A DNA stretch of 64,000 bases from an uncultured Spirochaetota bacterium (GCA_963781885.1 CAWAHW010000004.1:1-64000); one strand, 5' to 3'; shown: positions 22,021-53,219, counted from the stretch's first letter. Notes: generated from the sequence alone by a model not told the origin. A program made the numbers and translations.

Positions 22021-22207
22021 GCTCCGTGCCCTGAATGTAGCAACGGATGCGCCTCCTTCTCATCGCACAAAGGGGGGAAATTGGACCCCGCATCCGCGTC
22101 CCACATTTTAGTGAGGCGGATCGCCTCCTTTTTCCGATGCGCGCGAGGGTCGTTCCGGGCACAGGATGGTGTTGAGAAATGCACTCACATGCCGAGGAGG
22201 AACGACC

Positions 22208-22946
22208 GTGCATCGAGAATCGAAGGGAAGAAAGTGGCTGGTCAGTGCTCGCGGCGAGCGACCTCCTGGTTGCCCATTTCCGCATCGACACCCGGGGCTC
22301 CGAGCTTTTCCTCCCTTTCATCGTCATGGGAATCGGCATGGGCCTCTCCATGACGCCGCTCACCAACCTCACGCTCTACGGCGTTGCCCCTGAAAAGTCG
22401 GGCGGCGCGTCCGGCGTGCTTTCCACCATGCGCCAGATAGGCGCGGTGATGGGCGTGGCGATCTTCAGCGTGGCCCTCCAGGCGAACATGGTCGGGGCGA
22501 TGAAGATCCATGCCGCCGAGGTCCCCCACCTGCCACCCGCGGCCCAGGCCGTGCTCGTGAGCTACGTTTCCAGCGGCGGCCTGTACGGCATGTCGGATGA
22601 CGGCCCCAATGGCCTTGCCGCCCAGCTTGCAAAGTCGATGCGGCCGCCCGCCGCAACGGGGACGGCCATGCGACAGCCCAGCGCCGCGGAGCTCGCCGCG
22701 GCGGGGCAGCAGATGAAGGAAATGGGGGCAGGCGTCGAGCTCTCCATGAAGCGCAGCTTCACGGACGGCATCAACGACACCTTCCGGCTTGCGGCGCTGA
22801 TCGGCGTCGGCGCGGTGATCGTCGCTTTCTTCATGGCGGGCAGCCGCCGGAAGAAGCTCGCCGTCGAGGCGCGATCCGCCACGGCGTCGCAGCAGTCGGG
22901 GCAGCTTGCCGCCGATTCCGACGAAGGAATGGCGGCCGGGGAATGA
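22208..22946 (+). pseudogene. DHA2 (EmrB/QacA-like) MFS efflux gene with a large internal deletion
   Basis: GAGGAGG SD and GTG 22208 give MHRESKGRKWLV, a typical pre-TM1 start. Near 22243 this joins out of frame to the last TMs (GIGMGLSMTPLT...GGASGVLSTMRQIGAVMGVA...SFTDGINDTF). Confidence 0.7.
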
Positions 22947-23001: not shown

Positions 23002-23045
23002 GTTCCTATTCAGAAGCCTTGCATCTAAAAAAGGAAGGTGCGGTC

Positions 23046-25106
23046 ATGCCGCAAAAGGCCTTTCTTGCCGCCCTGCTCTTCGCGGGGCTGTGCACCCACG
23101 CCATTGCCCAGGACGGGAGCGGCTTCGCCCTCTCGCTCGATCCCGCGGTCACCTTCCCCTTCCCTTCGACGCCCAGCGCCTCCAGCTACGCGACAGGCTT
23201 TCAAGCCTCGTTCGGCGGAGACTACGTCTTCCCGGAGCTGCCCTTCCTCTCCGTGGGCGGCTCGTTCGACTTCGGCTACGCCCCGGGGCCCTCGGGACAG
23301 CAGTGGGCGCTCACCACCCTCGGACTGAGCGCGGGACCCGGGCTGCGTCTTCGTCTCCTGCCCACCCTTTCCGCAAACCTTTTCGGACGCGCCGGCTACC
23401 TGCTGGGAAGCCTCGGCCAGGTTTCGGCGCCGAACCCCTACCTGCGCGCGGGGATGGATCTGTCGCTCTACCTCTGGCCGACCTTCCGCCTGAGTGCCGG
23501 CGCTGAATACGTCCATCAGTTCGCGGCGACCCAGGCGCAATACCAGGGCATCGCGGCGCGCCTTTCCGCCGGGTTCAACTTCAGTCAGCTGAATCAGCGC
23601 GCCCGGGTGGAGATCCGCGACATCATCATCAACCCCGTCTTCCCGGTCTTTTACAAGTACTACGACGACAACAGGATCGGGACGGCGCGGATCTGGAATG
23701 GCGAAGACGGCCCGATCCGCAACGTGAGAGTCTCTTTCGTGGTCCCGCAGTACATGGACGCTCCCAAGGAATGCGCGGTCATCCCCGAGATGAAACGGGG
23801 CGAGGAGCGCGAAGTGCCGCTTTTCGCGCTTTTCACGCGCTCCATTCTTTCCGTCCTCGAGCCGACAAAAGCGCAGGCGAAGATCACGGTCTCCTACACC
23901 TATTCCGATCGGGAACGTGACGCCGCTTCGGAGTCGGTTGCAACCATCAATGACCGCAACGGAATGACGTGGGACGATGACCGGCACGTGGCGAGTTTTG
24001 CAACGGTGAACGATCCCGCGGTCATGACGCTCGCAAAAGCGGCGGCGGGCATCGCGCGGGGCGCGGGTTTCTCCGCTTTCGACACGGCGTTCCGCCAGGC
24101 CGCGGGCATTCTCGAGGAGCTGGGTCTCTACGGCCTGCGCTACGTCCCGGATCCGAACATGCCCTATTCGACGACCTCCAAGGATGCGCTTACCGTGGAC
24201 TACCTCCAGTTCCCGGTTCAGACCCTCCAGTACAGATCGGGAGACTGCGACGACATGTCCATTCTCTACGCGGCGATGCTGGAGGCGGGCGGCGTGGAAA
24301 GTGCCTTCATCACCGTTCCCGGCCATATCTACGCCGCCTTTGCGATGAGCATGCCGCCGGACAGGGCCGTCGCTTTCTTCTCCAATCCGGATGACCTCAT
24401 CGTGAAAGACGGCAAGGCGTGGGTCCCGGTCGAGGTTACGCTCGTCCAGGACGGCTTCCTCCGCGCGTGGCAGATTGGCGCGCGCGAATGGCGGGACGCA
24501 TCCGCCGCGGGCCAGGCGCGATTCTACCCGACCCATGATGCATGGAAGCTCTATGCGCCAGTGGCAATGCTCGGGACGGAGCAGTCGGTCGCGCTACCGG
24601 CCGTGGACCTGCTCACCGCGCGCTACGCTGCTGCCATGAACGCCCTTGTGGACAGGGAGGTGGGCCCGCGGGTGGACACGCTCACCGCGGACGCCGCCAG
24701 CGCCCCCCGGGACCCCCAGCCTCTCAACAAGATCGGCGTCCTGTACGCCCGTTACGGTGTCTATGACAAGGCAGAGCAATACTTTCGCTCGTCGCTTGGC
24801 CGCAAAGAGACGGCAGGCGGCGATTCCAACCTCGGGAACGTGTTGATGCTCAGGAACGATTTTCCCGCGGCGCTGAAGGCGTACCAGGCCGCGCAGAGGC
24901 TTGCGCCGGGCGACGCGAATGCCCTGAGCGGTCTCGTTCGCGCCACCTACGAGCTGAACGACCGCGCTGCCTCTGCCCAGTGGCTCGCGCGGCTCGAGCA
25001 GGTCGATCGCACCGCGGCCGGCAAGCTCGCCTACATCCGCGAAGGCGATTCCACGACGGCGCGGGCAGGTGAGGCAGGCCAGGAGGACTGGTCATGGTCG
25101 GAATGA
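23046..25106 (+). CDS. Secreted protein: beta-barrel-like N-terminal region, transglutaminase-like Cys-His-Glu domain, C-terminal TPRs
   Basis: Signal peptide; alternating aromatic beta-strands; SGDCDDMS...VPGHIY...WVPVEVT; TPR repeats (LNKIGVLYARYG, NLGNVLML). Confidence 0.8.
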   Translation: MPQKAFLAALLFAGLCTHAIAQDGSGFALSLDPAVTFPFPSTPSASSYATGFQASFGGDYVFPELPFLSVGGSFDFGYAPGPSGQQWALTTLGLSAGPGLRLRLLPTLSANLFGRAGYLLGSLGQVSAPNPYLRAGMDLSLYLWPTFRLSAGAEYVHQFAATQAQYQGIAARLSAGFNFSQLNQRARVEIRDIIINPVFPVFYKYYDDNRIGTARIWNGEDGPIRNVRVSFVVPQYMDAPKECAVIPEMKRGEEREVPLFALFTRSILSVLEPTKAQAKITVSYTYSDRERDAASESVATINDRNGMTWDDDRHVASFATVNDPAVMTLAKAAAGIARGAGFSAFDTAFRQAAGILEELGLYGLRYVPDPNMPYSTTSKDALTVDYLQFPVQTLQYRSGDCDDMSILYAAMLEAGGVESAFITVPGHIYAAFAMSMPPDRAVAFFSNPDDLIVKDGKAWVPVEVTLVQDGFLRAWQIGAREWRDASAAGQARFYPTHDAWKLYAPVAMLGTEQSVALPAVDLLTARYAAAMNALVDREVGPRVDTLTADAASAPRDPQPLNKIGVLYARYGVYDKAEQYFRSSLGRKETAGGDSNLGNVLMLRNDFPAALKAYQAAQRLAPGDANALSGLVRATYELNDRAASAQWLARLEQVDRTAAGKLAYIREGDSTTARAGEAGQEDWSWSE

Positions 25107-26530
25107 TGCCGCGGATGGAACGGCGCAAGGTGCGCTTCGCGAGGGGCATCGGCGTGGTGTTTGCGTTCGTCGCATGCGCCTTCCTTTCGTCATGCACGGA
25201 CGCACTGCTGACCGAAATGGCAAGAATTTCGCGGGAGGCACATCGTCCGGCAATCGCACCCGTGGATGGCTCGACCATCGCCGCCCACGAGACTCTTACT
25301 CTTAGCTTTCCGGCGTCCATGGACCCCGGCTCCGTCACCGTGTCAGGGGATATCGGTACCGTCGGCCCGGGTCTCACCTCCTGGAGCACGGCTGCGCTTT
25401 CAAATGACACGCTCACTTTGAATGCCAACGCGTCGGTGGCCTGGACGGCAGGCTCAGGAAAAGCTCTGACCATTGCCGTCACAGCCAACGGTCAAAGCTC
25501 CACCTATTCCTTCTCTTTTAACGTGGTGAGAGGCGTCTACGTCAATAAGTCAGGAACCGATTCGAACAGCGGAAGCACGCGGGCGCCCCTTCAGACGGTG
25601 GCGGCCGGAATCACGAAGGCGGAGCAGCTCTACCCGGGGTCTGGGACGGTCTACATTGCCGAAGGGCTCTACAGCGGCATGTCTCCTACGGATGGAAGCG
25701 CGGGCGCATTCAACATGGTGGACGGCATTTCCCTGTACGGCGGCTATTCCGCCACCGCCTGGAGCGACAGGAATATTGCGACCTATGCGACAATCCTTGA
25801 AGACACCGCGACTGCAGGCGGGACAAGCCAATCCTACCCGAACAGGACCATCGACTGTGGCTCCGGCATCACGAGCGCGACTGTCCTCGATGGCCTTACA
25901 ATCGTGACCGGCGCCGCCGTAAGCGGCTTCAACGTCGGCGTCTATTCGGCCGGCGCGCCGACAGTCCAGAATTGCACGATTGAAGGCCACACGACCTCTC
26001 CCGGCACCGATGTCTACGCGGTCTATAGCAAAAAGGGCGGGACTTTCCACGCCAACACCATCGACCCGAAAGCTGCGCTCGATACATCCTGCGGGGTGTA
26101 CCTCGAAGGATCGACGGCGACCATTCGATGGCAATACAATTCTCGGCGGCCAGGGAGCCACAAGCGAATATGGCATTGTCTGCCAGGACGGGCCGACGTC
26201 GCCCGCGCTTACGGGAAATACTATAGACATCTCCAACATCAAGCCAAGTTCCACATTAAGGTTCTGCATCTGAGATTTATGCCAGCTTAAATCCGACGAT
26301 CACCGGGAATACGCTTGTCTTCACAAATGGTAACATGGGCATCAAGACGACGGTTGCGTCGAGCGGAACCGGCGAAATTGCGGAACAACTATTTTGCGAC
26401 GTTTGCATGGAAGCTCTCTATCACGAGACCGACGGAAGAGATAACAACCGCAAACTGCCGGCAGCCAAAAATATCCACTCTGGAAGGCAGCAAGCTTTTG
26501 TTCGACCCCACCTGGGGCAATACGCACTGA
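25094..26530 (+). CDS. Lipoprotein with Ig-like (Big_5-like) domain and DUF1565/right-handed beta-helix region; at least three +1 frameshifts
   Basis: AGGAGG SD, lipobox LSSC, LSFPASMD, GTDSNSGSTRAPLQTV, GISLYGGY. Beta-helix 'GNTI' repeats continue across shifts at ~26124, ~26270 and ~26380 to ...WGNTH* at 26530. Confidence 0.72.
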
Positions 26531-26584
26531 AAGGAGAGCTCGGGCACGTCTCTCGCGCTTCTGGATTGAAAAAAGGAGGAAACA

Positions 26585-29509
26585 ATGTTGTTGATCGGTG
26601 AGGTCCCTCTCGTCGGCAGCCTCCAGGACATCAACCTGGAGCCGTATGATTCAACCACCAAGGTCAAGCTCAGCGACGCGGCTTATATCGGAAAAGCGGT
26701 CCTTGTGTCCTTCATCGACATTACGAACGGATGGGGCTGGCTCGATTCGATGAAGAGCATACGCACCAGCGCGTGCTTTCCGTCGTCCGGGGAGATGATA
26801 GCGGTCATCTTCAAGTATGGCGGCACGGTCCAGAAGCTGGACGTGATCAACAAGCTCGGCGCGGCCACCTATCCCTTCAAAATCCTCGTGGATGGAGCCT
26901 GGGGGGCCGGCTCGGTGGCGTATACCTACATGAACGGGTTCAAGAACGCGAACGACCCCTGCTTTTCGGGGACAGATGATTCCTGCGCCGGAAACACCCT
27001 CTGGTGCTATCTCGTGCAGCCCGATCATCGCATCGCGGACAAGTGGAACTTCAACTGCTGGAGCGACGCCACCCCGAGCAACAACGACCCGATCTCTTTC
27101 CGCAATCTTCCCGTGCATGCGGCGTTTCTCACGCTCTCCGGCTCACCAGGCACGGGGGCTCTTCAAATCGCGCTCTCGGGTATCGCCTCCAACCCGGGCG
27201 GCTCTCCCCTTTCCAGCGATTCGATGATCGTCTACCAGGGGCCCGCCAACAGCTATACGCCGAGCTTTTCCGGTCCCCGCGTGCTGTCCGTGATCCCGGC
27301 GGAAGGGTCGTCTCCGAGCCCTCTGTCGGCACTCCTGGTTGGATTCACGGATGCGGTGACGGGAGCAGCCGTTGCCGGCAACTACACCATCAGCGGTCCC
27401 GGCAAGGGGACGCTCGCCGTCGCCTCGGTGGAGTACGTCGATTCGGTCGCCTTCGACACGGTGAATCACACCCGGGCATTTTTCGACAGCAAGAACTTCC
27501 CCAACGCGGTGTTTTTCATCCGACAGCGCTTCATCCAGCTCTGTTGCGATCCGGCTGTCCTGTATGCCATTCCGGAGAAGGACCGCACCCTCTGCTCGTT
27601 GATGCAGATCAAGATCGTCTTCTCGAAGCCCATGGATCAAAGCACGATCGATGGCGTGCCGGGGAATTTCTCCACCAGCGTGCCGGGCTTGAATGTCTCT
27701 CTGGCCGCGTACAAGGACCGTGACCTGATTGAAAACCTCGCAACGCTGACGCTCAGCGGCGCGCTCGTCACCGGCAGCTTCACCGTGACCGCGGGCGCGG
27801 CGGTGAAAGCGCTGGGCTCCGTCGCCCTGGCGGGGACATCGAGCGTCCCTTACACGGCTGACGTGACGCCTCCGGCCACGCCAACGGTGACAGGCCCTGC
27901 CTGCACGAACATCAAGCGGCCCACCTGGACCTGGAACGCGGATCCAGACGTCGCGGGTTACCTCGTGAATCTGGACGGCACGGGATGGGTCACGTGGGCG
28001 TCGACCAGCTATACGCCAACGGCCGATCTGCCGGACGGGCCTCACACTCTGGCGGTGCAGGCGGAGGACGGTTGCGGCAACTGGTCCACGAGCGGCAGCG
28101 CAACGATCACCGTCAACACCCAGGCTCCGCCCGCGCCGACCATGCATTGTCCGGCAACGACGAACGTGAAAAGACCGACGTGGACGTGGGACACTGTGCC
28201 CGGCGCGGTCAAGTATCGCACAAGCACGAACGAGCAGACGTGGACCGAAACGACGGGGACCAGCTACACCCCCTCGAACGATCTGGCCGATGGGAGCTAT
28301 ACGCTGTACGTGGAGGCCGAAGACGCTTGCGGCAACTGGTCAGTCAGCGCCACCTGCACGACCATCGTGCATACGCAGGGGCCTTCCGCGCCCACCATGC
28401 ATTGCCCCTCCTGCACGAACGTGAAGAGACCGACGTGGACGTGGGACGCCGTCACTGGTGCGACCAAATATCACACCAGCACGGACGGGTCCCATTGGAC
28501 TGATACAACGGGAACCAGCTACACCCCCTCGAGCGACCTCCCTGACGGCACCTATACGCTCTACGTGCAGACGGGTGATGCCAGCGGCAACTGGTCCCAG
28601 AGCGCAAGCTGCACGATCACCGTCGACACGGTGGCTGCCCCCTGCACCGGTCGATGCATTGCCCCGCGACGAGCACTTCGAAGAGACCGACATGGACGTG
28701 GGACCCCGTGGTCGGCGCGGCCAAGTATCGTTCAAGCTTCACGAATGGCGCCCCTTGGACCGAGACAACAAATACGAGCTTCACGCCGACGTACGATCTC
28801 GGCGTCGGGACAAACACCCTCTACGTGCAGGCGGGCGACGCCTGCGGGAATTGGTCTCCCAGCGCCAGCTGTACCGTCCAAATTCCTTCCTCCTGCGGGG
28901 CGTGCATCAACGCAATTCCGTGCTTTCCGAAGATCTGCCCGGTTGCCATCGATCCCTGCACGCCGTTCATCTGTACCGGCTGTCTCAACAAGCTCTGCAC
29001 GCCAAAGATCTGCGCGGGCTGCCTCAACCAGGTCTGCCCGCCGAATCTCTGCATCAACTGCCTGCATATGCTCTGCCCACCCCAGATCTGCGGCAAATGC
29101 ATTTCCGATATCTGTCCTCCTGCCATGTGTGCCAAGTGCATCACGTCCATCTGTACTATTCCGTTGGGCGGCTGCGCCGCCGCTGATTTGTCCGGCCCCA
29201 TTAGGCGGCGGCTGCCCGCCCGCGATCTGTCCGGCCCCATTGGGCGGCGGTTGCCCGCCCGCGGTCTGTCCGGCCCCATTGGGCGGCGGCTGCGGCGGAT
29301 CCATAGGCTGTCCGGCCCTCGGTCCGGTCCCCATCGATCATTTCTCCCAGGTCATGCAGCTGGTGTTCGACCCGGCACGGACCGGCAGCCTCAAGGAACG
29401 GATGGCATTACAGGAGGTCCAGGTAATCGCCAAGGTGATGCCGAAAGGAATGTGGAAGGCCCTGTCCATGATGATTGCGCGCATCGCAAAAGGCAGATTC
29501 CGTGGCTGA
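26585..29509 (+). CDS. Large multidomain protein: redoxin-fold-like N-terminus, Ig-like domains, four 85-aa repeats, 28-Cys repeat array, helical tail (three +1 insertions to correct)
   Basis: Strong SD AAAGGAGGA. The true frame between ~28640 and 29175 is that of ORF 28654..29682, since it restores repeat 4 and the Cys array. The stop overlaps the rSAM start. Confidence 0.8.
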   Translation: MLLIGEVPLVGSLQDINLEPYDSTTKVKLSDAAYIGKAVLVSFIDITNGWGWLDSMKSIRTSACFPSSGEMIAVIFKYGGTVQKLDVINKLGAATYPFKILVDGAWGAGSVAYTYMNGFKNANDPCFSGTDDSCAGNTLWCYLVQPDHRIADKWNFNCWSDATPSNNDPISFRNLPVHAAFLTLSGSPGTGALQIALSGIASNPGGSPLSSDSMIVYQGPANSYTPSFSGPRVLSVIPAEGSSPSPLSALLVGFTDAVTGAAVAGNYTISGPGKGTLAVASVEYVDSVAFDTVNHTRAFFDSKNFPNAVFFIRQRFIQLCCDPAVLYAIPEKDRTLCSLMQIKIVFSKPMDQSTIDGVPGNFSTSVPGLNVSLAAYKDRDLIENLATLTLSGALVTGSFTVTAGAAVKALGSVALAGTSSVPYTADVTPPATPTVTGPACTNIKRPTWTWNADPDVAGYLVNLDGTGWVTWASTSYTPTADLPDGPHTLAVQAEDGCGNWSTSGSATITVNTQAPPAPTMHCPATTNVKRPTWTWDTVPGAVKYRTSTNEQTWTETTGTSYTPSNDLADGSYTLYVEAEDACGNWSVSATCTTIVHTQGPSAPTMHCPSCTNVKRPTWTWDAVTGATKYHTSTDGSHWTDTTGTSYTPSSDLPDGTYTLYVQTGDASGNWSQSASCTITVDTVAAPCTGRCIAPRRALRRDRHGRGTPWSARPSIVQASRMAPLGPRQQIRASRRRTISASGQTPSTCRRATPAGIGLPAPAVPSKFLPPAGRASTQFRAFRRSARLPSIPARRSSVPAVSTSSARQRSARAASTRSARRISASTACICSAHPRSAANAFPISVLLPCVPSASRPSVLFRWAAAPPLICPAPLGGGCPPAICPAPLGGGCPPAVCPAPLGGGCGGSIGCPALGPVPIDHFSQVMQLVFDPARTGSLKERMALQEVQVIAKVMPKGMWKALSMMIARIAKGRFRG
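27863..28884 (+). repeat. Four tandem 255-nt (85-aa) Ig/FN3-like repeats
   Basis: Consensus PxxPTMHCPxxTNVKRPTWTWD...WTxTTxTSYTPxxDLxDGxYTLYVxxxDxCGNWS...CT. Equivalent codons fall at 27887, 28142, 28397 and 28654 (periods 255, 255, 257). Confidence 0.9.
28957..29151 (+). repeat. Five 13-aa CxPxxCxxCxxxx repeats
   Basis: CTPFICTGCLNKL / CTPKICAGCLNQV / CPPNLCINCLHML / CPPQICGKCISDI / CPPAMCAKCITSI. Confidence 0.9.
29173..29290 (+). repeat. Three near-identical 39-nt repeats encoding CPPxxCPAPLGGG
   Basis: CPPLICPAPLGGG / CPPAICPAPLGGG / CPPAVCPAPLGGG; the first copy has one extra G at 29176. Confidence 0.9.
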
Positions 29510-30905
29510 GAACGCCATTGCGGAGGAGGGGGGGCGCGGACCCTCCCTCCATCCCTTCATCACCCTGCGCGACGAGCATTTCGGCGCGCTCGTCTTCAAC
29601 CCATACACCGGCGCGGAGCGTTCGTTCGCTGCTGCCGAAAGCGACGTCATCCGGAATCTCGACGGCCGCCGGGATCAGGTGACCCTCTCACGGATTATCG
29701 CCAGCCGGCATGGGTTCCCGCCCGACCAGGCAGCCGCGATCGTTGGGAACACATTGACCGCTCTCAGAGGCCTCCACGCTCTGGACGAGGAAGGCGGCGA
29801 TGCGGGACGACCTGCCCCCGCGGCGGCGCCGGCCTGTGGAGCGACGCCTGCCTGTGACGGGATCCTGTCGGCGCCGAAGAGCGCCATCTGGGAGCTGACG
29901 CGCGCCTGCAACCTTGAATGCGTCCATTGCCTCGCGCGCGGGGGGGAAGACGTCACGCGCGAGCTGGACCTGCCCCAGCTCCTGCGCATCGTCGACATCC
30001 TCGAGGAGGCCAGGGTCCTGAGGCTTTTTCTGTCCGGCGGCGAGCCTTTCGTTTCGCCGTGGATACTCCCCCTCATCGAGCGGCTCTCGGAGACGAACAT
30101 CTATTTCGATCTTGGGACGAACGGCTTTGACGTTCCGGAGGAGTTCTTCAGGAATCTCGACACCTACCGCCTGTTTCTGGTCCAGGTCAGCATCGACGGA
30201 ATCGGCGACCGCCACGATGCATTCCGCCGACGGAAAGGGGCGTTTGCCGCCGCGGCGCGAACCATCAGGCGCCTTTCGGAGGCGGGCGTCGACGTGACGA
30301 TCAGCACCACGGCGACGGCGGAGAACCTGGACCAGATCGAGGGCATTATCGACTTCGCTCTGCAGACGGGGTGCGCGGGCTTCAAGGCAATTGGTTTCGT
30401 CGCCGCCGGGCGGGGCAACGCCAACGCGTCCCGCTTGAAGCTGACCCGTGATCAGTACCGCGCGCTGGCGGCCCTTCTGGTGCGCAAGCAAGCTGAGCTT
30501 GCCGGCACGCTCAGCGTGGAGACGGGCACCACCATGAGCTTTCTCCTCGAGCCGCGCGCTCTCGACCCGGCACCCGCGCGCGAGGCCGGGCCGAAACGCC
30601 TCGGTTGCGCGGCCGGATCGGAGACGCTGTACATCGCGGCTGACGGCACGGCGTATCCCTGCCCCTTTTTCCGGGATTTCCCCCTTGGCAACTGCCTGCA
30701 GACGCCCCTGACGGAGATCTGGCGAAACGCGCCCTTTCTTACCTACTTGCGGACGCTCACGGACGCAAACGTTTCCGAGGAATGCCGGGCCTGCCCGCAT
30801 CTCGGCGCCGGCTGCAACGCAGGATGCCGCGCGTCGGCGTACCTGGCGAGCGGGGACCTGTGCGGGATGGACCCCTCGTGCTTCCGGGAGCGTGCGCCCG
30901 CATGA
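29502..30905 (+). CDS. Radical SAM/SPASM maturase with N-terminal RRE (PqqD/MftB-like) domain
   Basis: N-terminus LHPFITLRDEHFGALVFNP...IRNLDG; CNLECVHC; SGGEP; VQVSIDG; SPASM CAAG...YPCPF...CRACPHLGAGCNAGC...DPSC. GTG 29502 overlaps the upstream stop. Confidence 0.92.
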   Translation: MAENAIAEEGGRGPSLHPFITLRDEHFGALVFNPYTGAERSFAAAESDVIRNLDGRRDQVTLSRIIASRHGFPPDQAAAIVGNTLTALRGLHALDEEGGDAGRPAPAAAPACGATPACDGILSAPKSAIWELTRACNLECVHCLARGGEDVTRELDLPQLLRIVDILEEARVLRLFLSGGEPFVSPWILPLIERLSETNIYFDLGTNGFDVPEEFFRNLDTYRLFLVQVSIDGIGDRHDAFRRRKGAFAAAARTIRRLSEAGVDVTISTTATAENLDQIEGIIDFALQTGCAGFKAIGFVAAGRGNANASRLKLTRDQYRALAALLVRKQAELAGTLSVETGTTMSFLLEPRALDPAPAREAGPKRLGCAAGSETLYIAADGTAYPCPFFRDFPLGNCLQTPLTEIWRNAPFLTYLRTLTDANVSEECRACPHLGAGCNAGCRASAYLASGDLCGMDPSCFRERAPA

Positions 30906-30948
30906 GAAAGGTCGGCCCGGGCGCCGGGCGCGGTGCGCTGCGTCCGTG

Positions 30949-30977
30949 TTGACACGGGGGCTTCAAGTCGGTACCTT
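30949..30977 (+). promoter_or_regulatory. Sigma70 promoter of the DEAD-box helicase
   Basis: TTGACA-N17-TACCTT about 160 nt upstream of ATG 31138. Confidence 0.65.
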
Positions 30978-31137
30978 ATCAATGTCATCAGGATGTCGCA
31001 CGGCGGCATCTGACGTACGACGAACGAGTGTACAGGGCCCATCAAGTCCTCGCGTTGACCCCGCCCGGCGTGGCGCGCTACCGGTGGATTTCCACCGACA
31101 ATTCACTCCCACCTGCCGGATAGATCAAAGGATCTCA

Positions 31138-50135: not shown

Positions 50136-53100
50136 TCAGTAAAAATCGTGGCTCGCTCCCGTGAACGTTCCCGATGTCGTGGCCAGATCGGGCTTCCAGA
50201 ACGAATCGGCCACGACGTGGACAACCCCCTCGGACACCTGGAGACGCCCCGTCACGCCGAGCAGCCAATTGGTGAGGATGACGGTCCTGAATTTCTGGAA
50301 GACCTTGCTCCACACGACGAGATTCGCAAACCCTGTCTCGTCCTCCAGCGTCATGAAAAGCACGCCAGATGCCGTGCCCGGCATCTGGCGGCAGATCGCG
50401 GACCCCACGAAGGAAACCCTTTCACCGTTCTTCATTCGGGAAACGGCTGCCGCATCAGGAAGTCCTTCGCTGTCGAGCCGGCCGCGGAACTGCTCCATGA
50501 CATGCCCACGGGGGCTCTGATCGGAGGCGTTGTAGTCCCATGACACCTCCTCAGAGGGGGTCAGGCGGCGCAACGCGGGGAGGCTTTCCTCGGGCTCGAT
50601 GAGGATGGCCTCCGGGGGTCGATGCGGGTCGAGCACGCTCCAGAGGGCTTCACGGCGATGATTGCCGAAGCCGTCAAATGCTCCCACGGCCGCCAACCGC
50701 TCCAGGGAATCGCTGGGGAGCCGACACCGCGCCGTAAACTCCGCGAGCGATGCAGGGTGGCCTGTTTCGCGGAGCTCACGGATCTTTTCCCAATCGGCCT
50801 TGCGGAAGCCTTTGACGTAGCGCAACCCGATGCGGACGGCATGGCCGGATGCGGGATCCTCCTCCAAAAGGCATTCCCAGTCGCTTGCAAGCACGTCAAT
50901 GGGCAGGAACCTCACCCCGTGCCGTTTCGCGTCGTCGATGACCGTTGCCGGCGAATAGAAGCCAAAGGGCCACGCGTTCAGCAGGGCGCAGGCAAAAACC
51001 GCGGGGTAGTGCTGCTTCACGTAAGCCGTTGCATAGGCAATGAGGGCAAAGCTCGCCGCGTGGGATTCCGGGAACCCGTATTCACCGAACCCGCGGATCT
51101 GTGCAAAAACCCTTTCTGCAAACTCGGCTTCTATTCCCTTCGCCACCATGCGGGAAACCAGCCTCTCATGGTGCTGATCGATGCGGCCCTGCTGTCTCCA
51201 GGCTGCCATGTCGCGACGAAGCTGGTCCGCCTCACCCGGCGTGTAGTCGGCTGCAACCACCGCGAGCTTCATCACCTGCTCCTGAAAAAGGGGAATGCCG
51301 AGGGTCTTGCCGAGCACGGGCTCGAGGCTTGGATGCGGGTACGTCACTTTCTCTTCTCCCGCGCGTCGGCGCAGGTACGGATGGACCATGCCGCCCGTGA
51401 TGGGACCGGGACGGACGAGGCTTATCTCGATCACCAGGTCGTAGTAGCTCCGCGGCTTCAGACGCGGCAGCATGGCCATTTGCGCGCGGCTTTCAATCTG
51501 GAAGACTCCCACGGTGTCCGCCCGGCAGATCTGGGAAAAAACCTCCGCGTCATCCGGCGGTATAGTTGCCATGGAAAGGGACACGCCGCAATGCTTCTCC
51601 AACAAGCGGAAGGAATAATCCAGATGAGTGAGCGCGCCCAGACCGAGCAAGTCGACCTTGAAGAGATTCAGCGCTTCGATGTCGGTCTTGTCCCATTGGA
51701 TGACGGTACGGTCCGGCATGGTGGCGTTTTCAATGGGCACGATGGTGTCCACGGGTTCGCTGCCCAGGAGGAAGCCTCCCGGGTGTATCGACAGATGACG
51801 GGGAAAGCCGACGATCTCCCGGGACAATTCGAGCACGTTCCTGTTGACGGGTGCATCCATGTCCAAGCCCGCCGCCGCGAGAAGGGCATCCTTGCCTCCT
51901 TCCCAGTGAGCCATCAGCTTCGCGCAGCGGTCCAGGGCGATCTCCGGTACGCCGAAGGCCTTGCCCACTTCCCGGACGGCCGACCGTGACCGGTAGCGCA
52001 CCACGTTTGCGACCATGGCTGCCTTGTCGCGTCCGTATGTGGCGTACATGTGCTGGATGACCTCTTCCCGTCGATTATGCTCGATGTCCAGGTCGATGTC
52101 GGGCGGCTCTGCCCTTTCGCGGGAAAGGAAACGCTCGAACAGGAGATTCATTTTGACCGGATCAATTGCCGTGACGCCCAGGCAAAAGCAGACGGCGGAG
52201 TTGGCGGCGGATCCGCGTCCCTGGCAGAGTATGCCCTGCTCTGCACAATAGCGGACGATTTCCCTCATCGTGAGGAAGTATCCGCAATAGCGCAGCTCCT
52301 CGATGAGCGCAAGCTCTTTCTCGAGCTGTTTGCTCACGATCTCGGGGACTTCCCCTCCGTAACGTCCCTTCGCGCCTTCAAAGGTCAGCGTGCGCAGCCA
52401 CTCCGCCGTGGTGAGGCCATCCGGCACGGACTCATCAGGATAGCGGTACTCAAGCTCGGCGAGCGAGAAAAGGCATCGGTCCGCGACTTCCCGGGTCCGC
52501 TGGATGAGCTCAGGCGAGTCGCGATACAGGGCTGCAAACTCCACGGGAGCGCAGAGGGCATGCTCCGCATTCGGATGTAGCCTTGTTCCGGCCTCCCGCA
52601 GCGTGCACCCATGCCTGATGCATGTCAGGACGTCCTGGAGCTTCCGGCGGTCGGGGTGGTGGTATAGCACCTCGGTGACCGCGACAAGAGGCATGCCGAG
52701 ACGGGCCGCGGCTCCTCTGGTGGCGCGTTCGCGCGCGACGTCATCAACCCACCGATGACGGCAGATCGCCGCAAAAAGGCGGTCCCCGAATGCTTCGTGG
52801 AGGGAGCCGGGGCCGCGCGCGTCCGGGGCACCGGGGATGCGGTCATTGATCCACACGGCACAGAGGCCGGATGAATGCGCGCAGACTTCATCCCATGACA
52901 CCGAAAACCGACCCTTGACGCCGCGGAGATGACCCCGCGAGAGGAGATGGCACAGGTTGCCGTAGCCGCCCCTGTTTTCAGAAAGGAGGAGGATTGAGGC
53001 GCCGTCGTCGATCGACACCTGGGCGCCGACGATCAGCCGTATCCCCGTTTCGCGCGCGGCCTCGAATGCCCGGACGATGCCATAGAGGCCATTGCGGTCC

Positions 53101-53219
53101 GTGACGGCGACAGCCGGCAGGCCGTACCCGGCCGCCGTGCCGACAAGCTCGTGCGGATGACTGGCGCCTTCCAGGAAGGAAAAGTTGCTCTTGCAGCAGA
53201 GGGGAACGTATGTCGGCAC
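50136..53219 (-). CDS. dnaE2: Error-prone DNA polymerase DnaE2 (ImuC)
   Basis: SNFSFLEGASHP, GRGSAANS, PPDIDLD, FQIESRAQM, GFPESHAASF, C-terminal SHDFY. Probable GTG start at 53219. Confidence 0.95.
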   Translation of the reverse strand: MPTYVPLCCKSNFSFLEGASHPHELVGTAAGYGLPAVAVTDRNGLYGIVRAFEAARETGIRLIVGAQVSIDDGASILLLSENRGGYGNLCHLLSRGHLRGVKGRFSVSWDEVCAHSSGLCAVWINDRIPGAPDARGPGSLHEAFGDRLFAAICRHRWVDDVARERATRGAAARLGMPLVAVTEVLYHHPDRRKLQDVLTCIRHGCTLREAGTRLHPNAEHALCAPVEFAALYRDSPELIQRTREVADRCLFSLAELEYRYPDESVPDGLTTAEWLRTLTFEGAKGRYGGEVPEIVSKQLEKELALIEELRYCGYFLTMREIVRYCAEQGILCQGRGSAANSAVCFCLGVTAIDPVKMNLLFERFLSRERAEPPDIDLDIEHNRREEVIQHMYATYGRDKAAMVANVVRYRSRSAVREVGKAFGVPEIALDRCAKLMAHWEGGKDALLAAAGLDMDAPVNRNVLELSREIVGFPRHLSIHPGGFLLGSEPVDTIVPIENATMPDRTVIQWDKTDIEALNLFKVDLLGLGALTHLDYSFRLLEKHCGVSLSMATIPPDDAEVFSQICRADTVGVFQIESRAQMAMLPRLKPRSYYDLVIEISLVRPGPITGGMVHPYLRRRAGEEKVTYPHPSLEPVLGKTLGIPLFQEQVMKLAVVAADYTPGEADQLRRDMAAWRQQGRIDQHHERLVSRMVAKGIEAEFAERVFAQIRGFGEYGFPESHAASFALIAYATAYVKQHYPAVFACALLNAWPFGFYSPATVIDDAKRHGVRFLPIDVLASDWECLLEEDPASGHAVRIGLRYVKGFRKADWEKIRELRETGHPASLAEFTARCRLPSDSLERLAAVGAFDGFGNHRREALWSVLDPHRPPEAILIEPEESLPALRRLTPSEEVSWDYNASDQSPRGHVMEQFRGRLDSEGLPDAAAVSRMKNGERVSFVGSAICRQMPGTASGVLFMTLEDETGFANLVVWSKVFQKFRTVILTNWLLGVTGRLQVSEGVVHVVADSFWKPDLATTSGTFTGASHDFY

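Follow-up and report, generated by a model that had tools for sequence, protein, structure and literature searches.

Which molecule is modified by a peptide-maturase-like enzyme whose gene overlaps the end of a gene for a protein of ~100 kDa? The question is raised by positions 26585-30905 of a 64,000-nucleotide stretch of DNA from an uncultured Spirochaetota bacterium (GCA_963781885.1 CAWAHW010000004.1:1-64000), the whole of which is called the window here. A large open reading frame (ORF) for an immunoglobulin (Ig)-repeat protein is followed there by the gene for an enzyme with an N-terminal RiPP recognition element (RRE; RiPP, a ribosomally made peptide that is modified after translation), a radical S-adenosylmethionine (SAM) core and a C-terminal SPASM domain. 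Conservation of the gene pair in other loci makes it very probable, in our view, that the substrate is a Cys-repeat array within the large protein, most of which is hidden by frame breaks in the window. We also consider it probable that this array is cross-linked by radical chemistry, likely as thioethers, under the direction of a conserved C-terminal tail. The elements of the two genes are as follows.

26573-26579, + strand: Shine-Dalgarno-like AAGGAGG, read from the sequence, 5 nt ahead of the ATG at 26585
26585-29509, + strand: putative substrate gene as assembled, a 974-aa ORF (ORF listing; Big_13, E=6.7e-24)
27896-28651, + strand: three in-frame Big_13-like Ig repeats of ~85 aa each, 255-nt period (Tandem Repeats Finder, Pfam, self-alignment)
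28637-28653, + strand: first frame break, two extra bases, placed by the repeat junctions and the relative P0120
28654-28887, + strand: fourth Ig repeat, in the alternative frame only, 59-67% identical to repeats 2 and 3 and aligned with P0120 residues 691-768
28888-29175, + strand: Cys array part 1, 21 Cys, in the alternative frame, aligned with P0120 residues 769-858
29176, + strand: second frame break, one extra base in the first 39-nt unit, which measures 40 nt (sequence and Tandem Repeats Finder)
29177-29311, + strand: Cys array part 2, 7 Cys, in the main frame, aligned with P0120
29312-29506, + strand: conserved C-terminal tail of ~65 aa, the proposed recognition element (tail alignment and profile)
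29502-30905, + strand: RRE-radical SAM-SPASM maturase gene, 467 aa from the GTG at 29502 (Pfam, alignment, model)

The 974-aa ORF combines an N-terminal domain of unfamiliar family, two SbsA/Big_5-like stretches, Big_13 repeats (PF19077, 84.8 bits against a gathering score of 27, three stretches in frame), the Cys array and the tail, and inspection of its N-terminus reveals no signal-like hydrophobic segment. The Shine-Dalgarno-like sequence indicates that this ORF has its own start and is not an extension of the lipoprotein-type gene upstream; because P0120 begins at the same residues as well, a continuation of that gene was rejected. A second long ORF in another frame (28654-29682) overlaps the first. 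The first-pass annotation, made from the sequence alone, had proposed that the gene is out of frame from about 28640 to 29175, and the two breaks listed above bear this out. Read from the DNA, the 1/2 and 2/3 junctions of the Ig repeats measure 27 nt, against 29 nt for the 3/4 junction, and one of the two extra bases may sit in the run of five C at 28638-28642. Tandem Repeats Finder places a 255-nt array at 28131-28729; of its two 39-nt arrays, at 28956-29053 and 29167-29293, the second has 3% indels. The second break is contained in a GC inverted repeat of 6 bp (loop 3) at 29167-29181, which the extra base makes perfect. A further break near 27480-27560 was considered and rejected, since P0120 aligns straight across it.

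The alternative frame, when translated, is 47-67% identical to the gene's own three in-frame Ig repeats. Part 1 of the Cys array includes five 13-residue units of the form C-x-P-x-x-C-x-x-C-x-x-x-x; part 2 consists of three units C-P-P-x-x-C-P-A-P-L-G-G-G followed by G-C-P-A-L-G-P, the local form of a family boundary motif that reads G-C-P-A-I-D-P in relatives. The total, counted by hand, of 28 Cys within ~139 residues (28654-29175 plus 29177-29311) agrees with the count, and with the five-plus-three pattern of units, that the annotation had given. Because the alternative frame matches both the in-frame Ig repeats and the intact relative, we take the hidden array to be genuine and not a chance pattern.

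That relative, P0120, is a 987-aa metagenome protein found by searching with the first 440 residues of the 974-aa ORF, and it carries four Big_13 stretches, about ten 13-residue Cys repeats, G-C-P-A-I-D-P and the tail in a single frame throughout. The main frame of the window gene aligns to P0120 residues 1-687 (69% identity) and 873-987 (57%), and the alternative frame (28654-29175) to residues 691-858 (55% identity, E=5e-58). Judged by these alignments, the window substrate gene is the orthologue of an intact gene from which it differs by two frame breaks. Programmed frameshifting was rejected as an explanation, since two unrelated shifts would be needed, no slippery motif is present and the orthologue is read in one frame. 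The enzyme closest to the window maturase (P0002, 66% identical) and P0120 are each known from a single contig, of 10,910 nt in both cases, and this shared length suggests that the two are probably neighbours on one contig. NCBIfam models match P0120 only in the Ig-repeat region (residues 629-767), with none over the array or tail. Another protein, P0121 (1372 aa), resembles the window protein (45% identity) over the latter's N-terminal domain and SbsA-like part and has other Ig repeats; it lacks a Cys array and tail, so the N-terminal module of the window protein is also used outside the cassette.

The stop codon of the substrate gene (TGA 29507-29509) overlaps the maturase start at GTG 29502, as had been noted in the first-pass annotation, and a database protein of 467 aa (P0001) begins at that GTG. 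Pfam assigns a radical SAM domain (PF04055, E=1.9e-22) and a SPASM domain (PF13186, E=4.6e-12) to the maturase. Among 58 family members, the third Cys of the CX3CX2C motif (C136/C140/C143) is invariant and the first two are at least 90% conserved; C369, C387, C428, C431, C438, C442 and C460 of the SPASM domain are invariant, as is G382, and the domain fits the seven-Cys pattern C-x9-15-G-x4-C ... C-x2-C-x5-6-C-x3-C ... C. An AlphaFold model of the maturase has a mean pLDDT, the predicted score in the local distance difference test, of 90.9, and residues 21-90 adopt RRE topology in it (strands 21-25, 28-33 and 38-42, helices 44-51, 59-70 and 74-90, pLDDT 91-98). Moreover, from position 16 of the family profile onwards SuiB can be aligned to it, which brings the SuiB RRE into the alignment. 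The identity proposed in the annotation, an RRE with radical SAM and SPASM domains, is upheld by the Pfam matches to the latter two domains, the SuiB alignment, the model and the fold matches. The best structural matches found with Foldseek are the RiPP maturases SkfB (E=2e-20), SuiB, PqqE and CteB (E=8e-17), and anSME is also among the matches; by sequence, the nearest solved structure is SkfB (170.6 bits), and CteB (100.6 bits) comes behind PqqE and SuiB.

A protein search with the maturase returned 78 matches at E<=1e-30, of which 62, the window protein included, form a clear family (E<=2.2e-70, 33-66% identity, 276-505 aa); the other 16 are NirJ-like. For none of the best 25 of 69 NCBIfam matches to the maturase is the cut-off of the model attained. 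The top scores are those of NirJ (155.5 bits against a cut-off of 515), MftC (150.5), AhbD (133.7) and PqqE (96), all 2.5- to 4-fold under their cut-offs, and the scores for SkfB, AlbA and PapB are 93, 76 and 73 bits against cut-offs of 300, 850 and 340. The named equivalogs, including ScmE/F, GeoRSP and ACGX, likewise do not reach their cut-offs among these best 25 matches. TIGR04463 (rSAM_vs_C_rich, the CrpC family) scores 32.5 bits at C4:29898-30371 against a cut-off of 525. The window family is therefore outside TIGR04463 and the named equivalogs. A second radical SAM/SPASM gene in the same genome (locus L178, G000:C1:485370-486551) scores 163 bits on TIGR04463; no Cys-rich protein is encoded within its 4.2-kb locus, and the profile match of the SBP_bac_5 gene upstream goes no further than position 312 of 368, a possible further frame break.

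Strong evidence for the nature of the substrate comes from metagenome loci. A scan with the family alignment returned 80 loci, and the upstream side was inspected in 19 of the 27 best, the other eight having little or no upstream sequence or not being inspected. In 14 of the 19 (L098-L105, L108, L109 and L112-L115) the gene directly upstream of the enzyme ends in a Cys-repeat array and the same tail, frequently with a stop/start overlap, and where the enzyme is at least 39% identical to the window maturase this holds for all nine inspected loci. Together with the intact pair P0120/P0002, this conservation strongly supports the earlier suggestion that the substrate is the large Ig-repeat protein. 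The annotation had also pointed to an upstream Cys-repeat ORF as the feature to look for in maturase homologues; such an ORF is general among the closer relatives, is missing from five distant loci, and varies in repeat type. As assigned by Pfam, the N-terminal parts of the substrates are mutually unrelated.

L098, L103 and L104: Peptidase_C25 with propeptide and F5/8 type C domains
L112: subtilase S8
L109 and L113: trypsin/NAL1-like, with scores under the cut-off
P0119: zinc carboxypeptidase M14
Window, P0120 and L108: Big_13 Ig repeats
L105, P0096, P0097 and P0101: no known domain

The largest substrate has 1274 aa, and no signal-like hydrophobic segment was seen by inspection of the full-length substrate N-termini examined. 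The array is C-x5-C in the C25 type; the serine-protease types have units of 11-12 residues that contain G-G-P-D or Q-P-D, and the window protein has units of 13 residues. The enzymes of L104 and L105 are 81% identical over 445 residues, yet the upstream proteins, a 1086-aa C25 peptidase in L104 and a 375-aa protein of no known family in L105, have only their last ~115-130 residues in common, namely the array and an almost identical tail. What is inherited together is therefore array plus tail plus enzyme, with the N-terminal domains swapped. No conserved third gene was found among the Pfam-scanned neighbours in L098, L103 and L104 or around the window genes: the neighbours are a histidine kinase, a primase, an IS66 transposase, a LysM-C70 peptidase and a nitrogenase-like protein in the former, and a TPR/transglutaminase-like protein, a lipoprotein and a DEAD-box helicase in the window. 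In L111 the upstream side holds only a 92-aa fragment, and in L120 no substrate-like gene lies upstream of the enzyme. In L117 (9394-9843) and L118 (420-797), where the enzymes have ~32% identity, the upstream proteins are of 125-149 aa; their N-terminal part is helical and they have a small cluster of Cys, but the tail is missing, and they may represent a sister system with leader-type substrates. L124 (7638-10407) has two tandem RRE-radical SAM-SPASM genes (459 and 467 aa) and no tail protein.

Alignment of the last 80 residues of 12 substrates defines a shared end of approximately hydrophobic-x-x-[LM]-[PS]-x-x-x-[RK]-K-x-h-x-x-M-h-x-R-I. When searched against 1.84 billion representative proteins, the tail profile gives 41 matches at E<=1e-3, 17 of them at E<=1e-10. 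In 36 of the 41 the match is a single stretch at the extreme C-terminus; the remaining five, which are multi-stretch and internal, are probably spurious. A Cys array directly precedes the tail in 20 of the 21 matches that were read. The window genome holds one clear copy of the tail, in the substrate gene (81 bits), the next match scoring 15.5 bits (E=0.084). A single-sequence model of the last 222 residues of P0120 has a mean pLDDT of 52, with the tail confidently helical (79-88) and the array at 31-56, so low that its predicted helices are meaningless. Co-folding of the RRE (residues 1-110) with the 80-residue tail, run without controls, scored 0.31, 0.02 and 0.02 in three runs against a mark of 0.32. 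No Pfam or NCBIfam model covers the array or tail (NCBIfam having been applied to C-terminal pieces of L098, L104, L109 and L112 and to P0120), and Pfam matched only the Ig-like parts preceding the array. When longer proteins were searched by words with the Cys region of the alternative frame, no match was obtained, and the ESM Atlas gave no usable one.

These observations suggest a mechanism in which two translationally coupled genes would supply first the large, signal-less substrate and then the RRE-radical SAM-SPASM enzyme. The N-terminal RRE of the enzyme would dock on the C-terminal tail, a recognition of follower and not leader type, and the array would be fed through the active site repeat by repeat. 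Each repeat would gain an intramolecular cross-link, most likely a Cys thioether of the sactionine or ranthionine kind, and the array would end as a covalently stapled module on a protein of ~100 kDa. We give about an even chance to the tail being the RRE docking site, because it is the only element common to all substrates and co-varies with the enzyme. The odds that the product is a Cys thioether seem slightly better than even, because Cys is the sole conserved residue of the array, because SkfB, which is the best match by sequence, and CteB, both of them thioether synthases, are among the closest solved relatives, and because CrpC, which also has a seven-Cys SPASM domain and is the sole tested radical SAM enzyme paired with a Cys-repeat protein, makes ranthionine links (PMC13692751). 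More tentatively, the cassette may exemplify a portable class in which a folded C-terminal follower guides the stapling of 6-13-residue Cys repeats into a rigid, thioether-laced rod. Such a rod would end cytoplasmically made proteins of ~40-140 kDa, mostly peptidases of four unrelated classes, and could be attached to any N-terminal domain. It could replace the disulfide-braced beta-solenoids of secreted proteins in a redox-independent manner, or form a plug that autoinhibits or anchors the fused peptidase.

Several findings weigh against this interpretation. As assembled, the fourth Ig repeat and the first 21 Cys are out of frame over 28654-29175, so that this organism may produce no array. 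Five of the 19 inspected loci lack a tail protein, all of them with distant enzymes (29-32% identity); the C25-type protein P0109 (486 aa) has the tail without a Cys array before it; and P0079 (L099) has only 6 Cys. No acceptor residue is conserved across the C-x5-C, C-x4-C-x2-C-x4 and C-x5-D-containing types, which share Cys alone. The profile check that the first-pass annotation had recommended succeeded for SPASM and gave no significant Pfam PqqD match on the N-terminal 133 residues of the window maturase; in L104 PqqD stays below the threshold (E=0.015), and P0023 and P0032 alone have a precomputed match. The family is also scarce: of 401 genomes sampled from the phylum, a single one has the enzyme at E<=1e-60. 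Forty related genomes contain no close relative of the maturase, the best (in G040) being 42% identical over residues 124-407. That relative has no RRE part and no tail protein upstream, in a locus that is partly masked; the other matches in the 40 genomes are at most 30% identical, and just 1 of 20 same-genus genomes has any match. A genome-contig scan with the single maturase returned only NirJ/AhbD-like relatives at 26-33% identity. The cassette is a rare accessory element.

Other readings of the array and enzyme account for part of this evidence. It is unlikely, in our estimate, that the array is a metal- or iron-sulfur-binding module resembling a metallothionein or an electron wire, with the enzyme performing other chemistry such as epimerisation, formation of C-C or C-O links, or modification within the tail. 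The array is 20% Cys on a strict period, which is also typical of metal-binding repeats, and SPASM enzymes have varied chemistries, with SuiB, PqqE and anSME among the fold matches here. Nevertheless, Cys is the sole residue kept across very different array types, and the solved structure closest in sequence, SkfB, is a Cys-thioether synthase, with CteB matched as well. The authors of the CrpA study do propose a metal-related role for its product, but CrpC, the only experimentally tested Cys-repeat-protein system, yields thioethers (PMC13692751). Metal binding by the final product would, moreover, be compatible with earlier cross-linking. The peptidase domains of most substrates (C25, S8, M14 and the trypsin/NAL1-like domains that score under the Pfam cut-off) and the regularity of the repeats, which is that of multi-core precursors, might instead indicate that the array is a multi-core RiPP precursor from which a fused or separate protease excises the repeats as stapled peptides, leaving the large protein as a mere carrier. 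We regard this as quite unlikely, given that the window protein, P0120 and L108 have Ig repeats and no recognisable peptidase, that no conserved cleavage motif separates the repeats, whose spacers are only 0-4 residues, and that L098, L103 and L104 (Pfam) and the surroundings of the window genes hold no conserved transporter or third gene.

Most RRE-radical SAM-SPASM enzymes have precursors of 30-100 aa, and the adjacency to a large protein could be incidental if the enzyme acted on a separate small precursor encoded nearby. The 125-149-aa proteins upstream of the distant relatives L117 and L118 fit this idea. However, no Cys-patterned ORF of at least 20 aa was found up- or downstream of the window genes, as the first-pass annotation had already remarked of short precursors, and the stop/start overlap and the pairing with large proteins of unrelated N-terminal domains in the 14 loci argue against it, so that we consider it very improbable. 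Cross-linking of the array of the large protein is the reading that we retain.

A separate matter is the state of this particular copy. The cassette in the window is either mis-assembled at the substrate gene or recently inactivated, and we lean, weakly, towards an assembly error over real mutation as the source of the breaks. That the cassette is dead, the extra bases being real mutations and the enzyme an orphan heading to decay, has in our estimate a somewhat less than even chance; the product would then be a protein of 974 aa with an Arg-rich out-of-frame insert of ~178 residues and only the last 7 Cys. The assembly is not broken throughout: rpoB, rpoC, dnaE, uvrA and two paralogues are single open frames, and the five extra bases within 26127-29176 represent a local excess. 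Three frames are likewise needed to read the adjacent beta-helix lipoprotein gene (25094-26601), and a major facilitator superfamily (MFS) transporter is kept only as a C-terminal fragment (22179-22946), which with the other breaks resembles a decaying accessory island. The second break, in addition, perfects a 6-bp GC hairpin, and templated insertion at quasi-palindromes is a known mutational route. Against inactivation, all five changes are single-base insertions, with no deletions and no stop codons; the alternative frame remains open for 174 codons, with its 21 Cys all on the repeat pattern; and the maturase gene keeps every invariant residue. All breaks also fall in stretches rich in repeats, the kind of sequence for which consensus and polishing go wrong most often in long-read metagenome assemblies, and one may be in the five-C run. 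Contigs from public reads over 25000-31000 (three runs of one study, shares 0.12, 0.05 and 0.00) span neither 28637-28653 nor 29176, covering only 28469-28634, 28932-29123, 29258-29425 and a few other short stretches. A scan for promoters and terminators gave a number of sites not above that in shuffled sequence.

The genes around the cassette include the following.

22179-22946, + strand: MFS fragment covering MFS_1 profile positions 293-346 of 347, apparently truncated, adjoining an opposite-strand gene for an extracytoplasmic function (ECF)-type sigma factor
23019-25106, + strand: 695-aa protein with TPR and transglutaminase-core parts and a weak ProA anti-phage match (32.7 bits against 1500)
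25094-26601, + strand: lipoprotein-type gene with a lipobox-like L-S-S-C, weak DUF1565 and LIC10774-family beta-helix matches and extra single bases near 26127 and 26250, ending 17 nt inside the substrate gene
50637-53210, - strand: second DnaE-like polymerase gene (TIGR00594, 566 bits, positions 1-891), the main dnaE being on contig 2

To our knowledge, enzymatic thioether stapling has so far been almost entirely of short peptides, and few RRE enzymes recognise their substrates by a C-terminal tail. If the reading advanced here is true, thioether stapling would extend to bacterial proteins of up to ~140 kDa and C-terminal-tail recognition would be added to it, and the data would point to a portable unit of array, tail and enzyme that has become attached to Ig stalks and to peptidases of at least four classes. 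The system bears on how one radical SAM enzyme handles tens of repeats in one protein, on what a stapled Cys rod does for a protease, and on the use of the module as a tag to rigidify or stabilise chosen proteins. Its value for this genome is smaller, the cassette being rare and accessory and its substrate gene frame-broken as assembled. In a full-text literature search, no paper turned up in which such an enzyme is paired with peptidase C25 or with a C-terminal follower, and 'TIGR04463' retrieved one paper only. The bacterial multi-domain homologues in Supplemental Data set 1 of the CrpA paper (PMC13692751) may or may not include the window family.

Several known systems resemble the cassette in part. 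The window maturase has the N-terminal RRE, radical SAM core and C-terminal auxiliary clusters of SkfB, CteB, AlbA and PapB, the last of which staples repeated Cys-X3-Asp units; unlike the window family, these enzymes act on peptides of <100 aa with N-terminal leaders. NirJ and AhbD, whose substrates are tetrapyrroles, lack an RRE. The fold match anSME (AtsB-type) is a SPASM enzyme that acts on a full-size enzyme and not on a peptide; it has no RRE, oxidises one Cys or Ser to formylglycine, and its substrate has no repeat array. QhpD is a radical SAM/SPASM enzyme that makes intra-protein Cys thioethers in QhpC, a subunit that remains in a protein; QhpC is small (~110 aa), with three links and neither a repeat array nor a C-terminal tail, and the QhpD model is absent from the best 25 of 69 NCBIfam matches to the window maturase.

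The closest precedent is CrpA/CrpC. According to a paper of September 2026, CrpC of Methanococcus voltae (TIGR04463) is an RRE-radical SAM-SPASM enzyme with a seven-Cys SPASM domain that places ranthionine links on the Cys-repeat protein CrpA, which has a mass of 28.8 kDa, a 17-residue C-x-x-Q/D repeat and a leader-like N-terminal region of 47 residues; the product is a modified protein, not a peptide (PMC13692751). This 29-kDa archaeal protein is the first biochemical case of such stapling on a Cys-repeat protein (PMC13692751). In both systems the enzyme gene adjoins a gene for a protein with a C-terminal Cys-repeat array, and the opinion of the first-pass annotation that no system of this architecture had been described is weakened to that extent; it retains some force in that CrpC belongs to another family, with N-terminal recognition. 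The kind of system is thus already known, an RRE-radical SAM/SPASM enzyme cross-linking a Cys-repeat protein, with QhpD/QhpC as an earlier instance. The score of the window maturase on TIGR04463 sets it apart from CrpC. Unlike CrpA as reported there, the substrates of the window family reach 1274 aa, have unrelated N-termini (C25, S8, M14, trypsin-like, Ig and other) with no conserved leader-like sequence, end in a conserved tail, and carry repeats of 6, 11-12 or 13 residues. What would be new relative to CrpA/CrpC is the recognition element, the size and architecture of the substrate, with its peptidase or Ig fusions, and the type of repeat.

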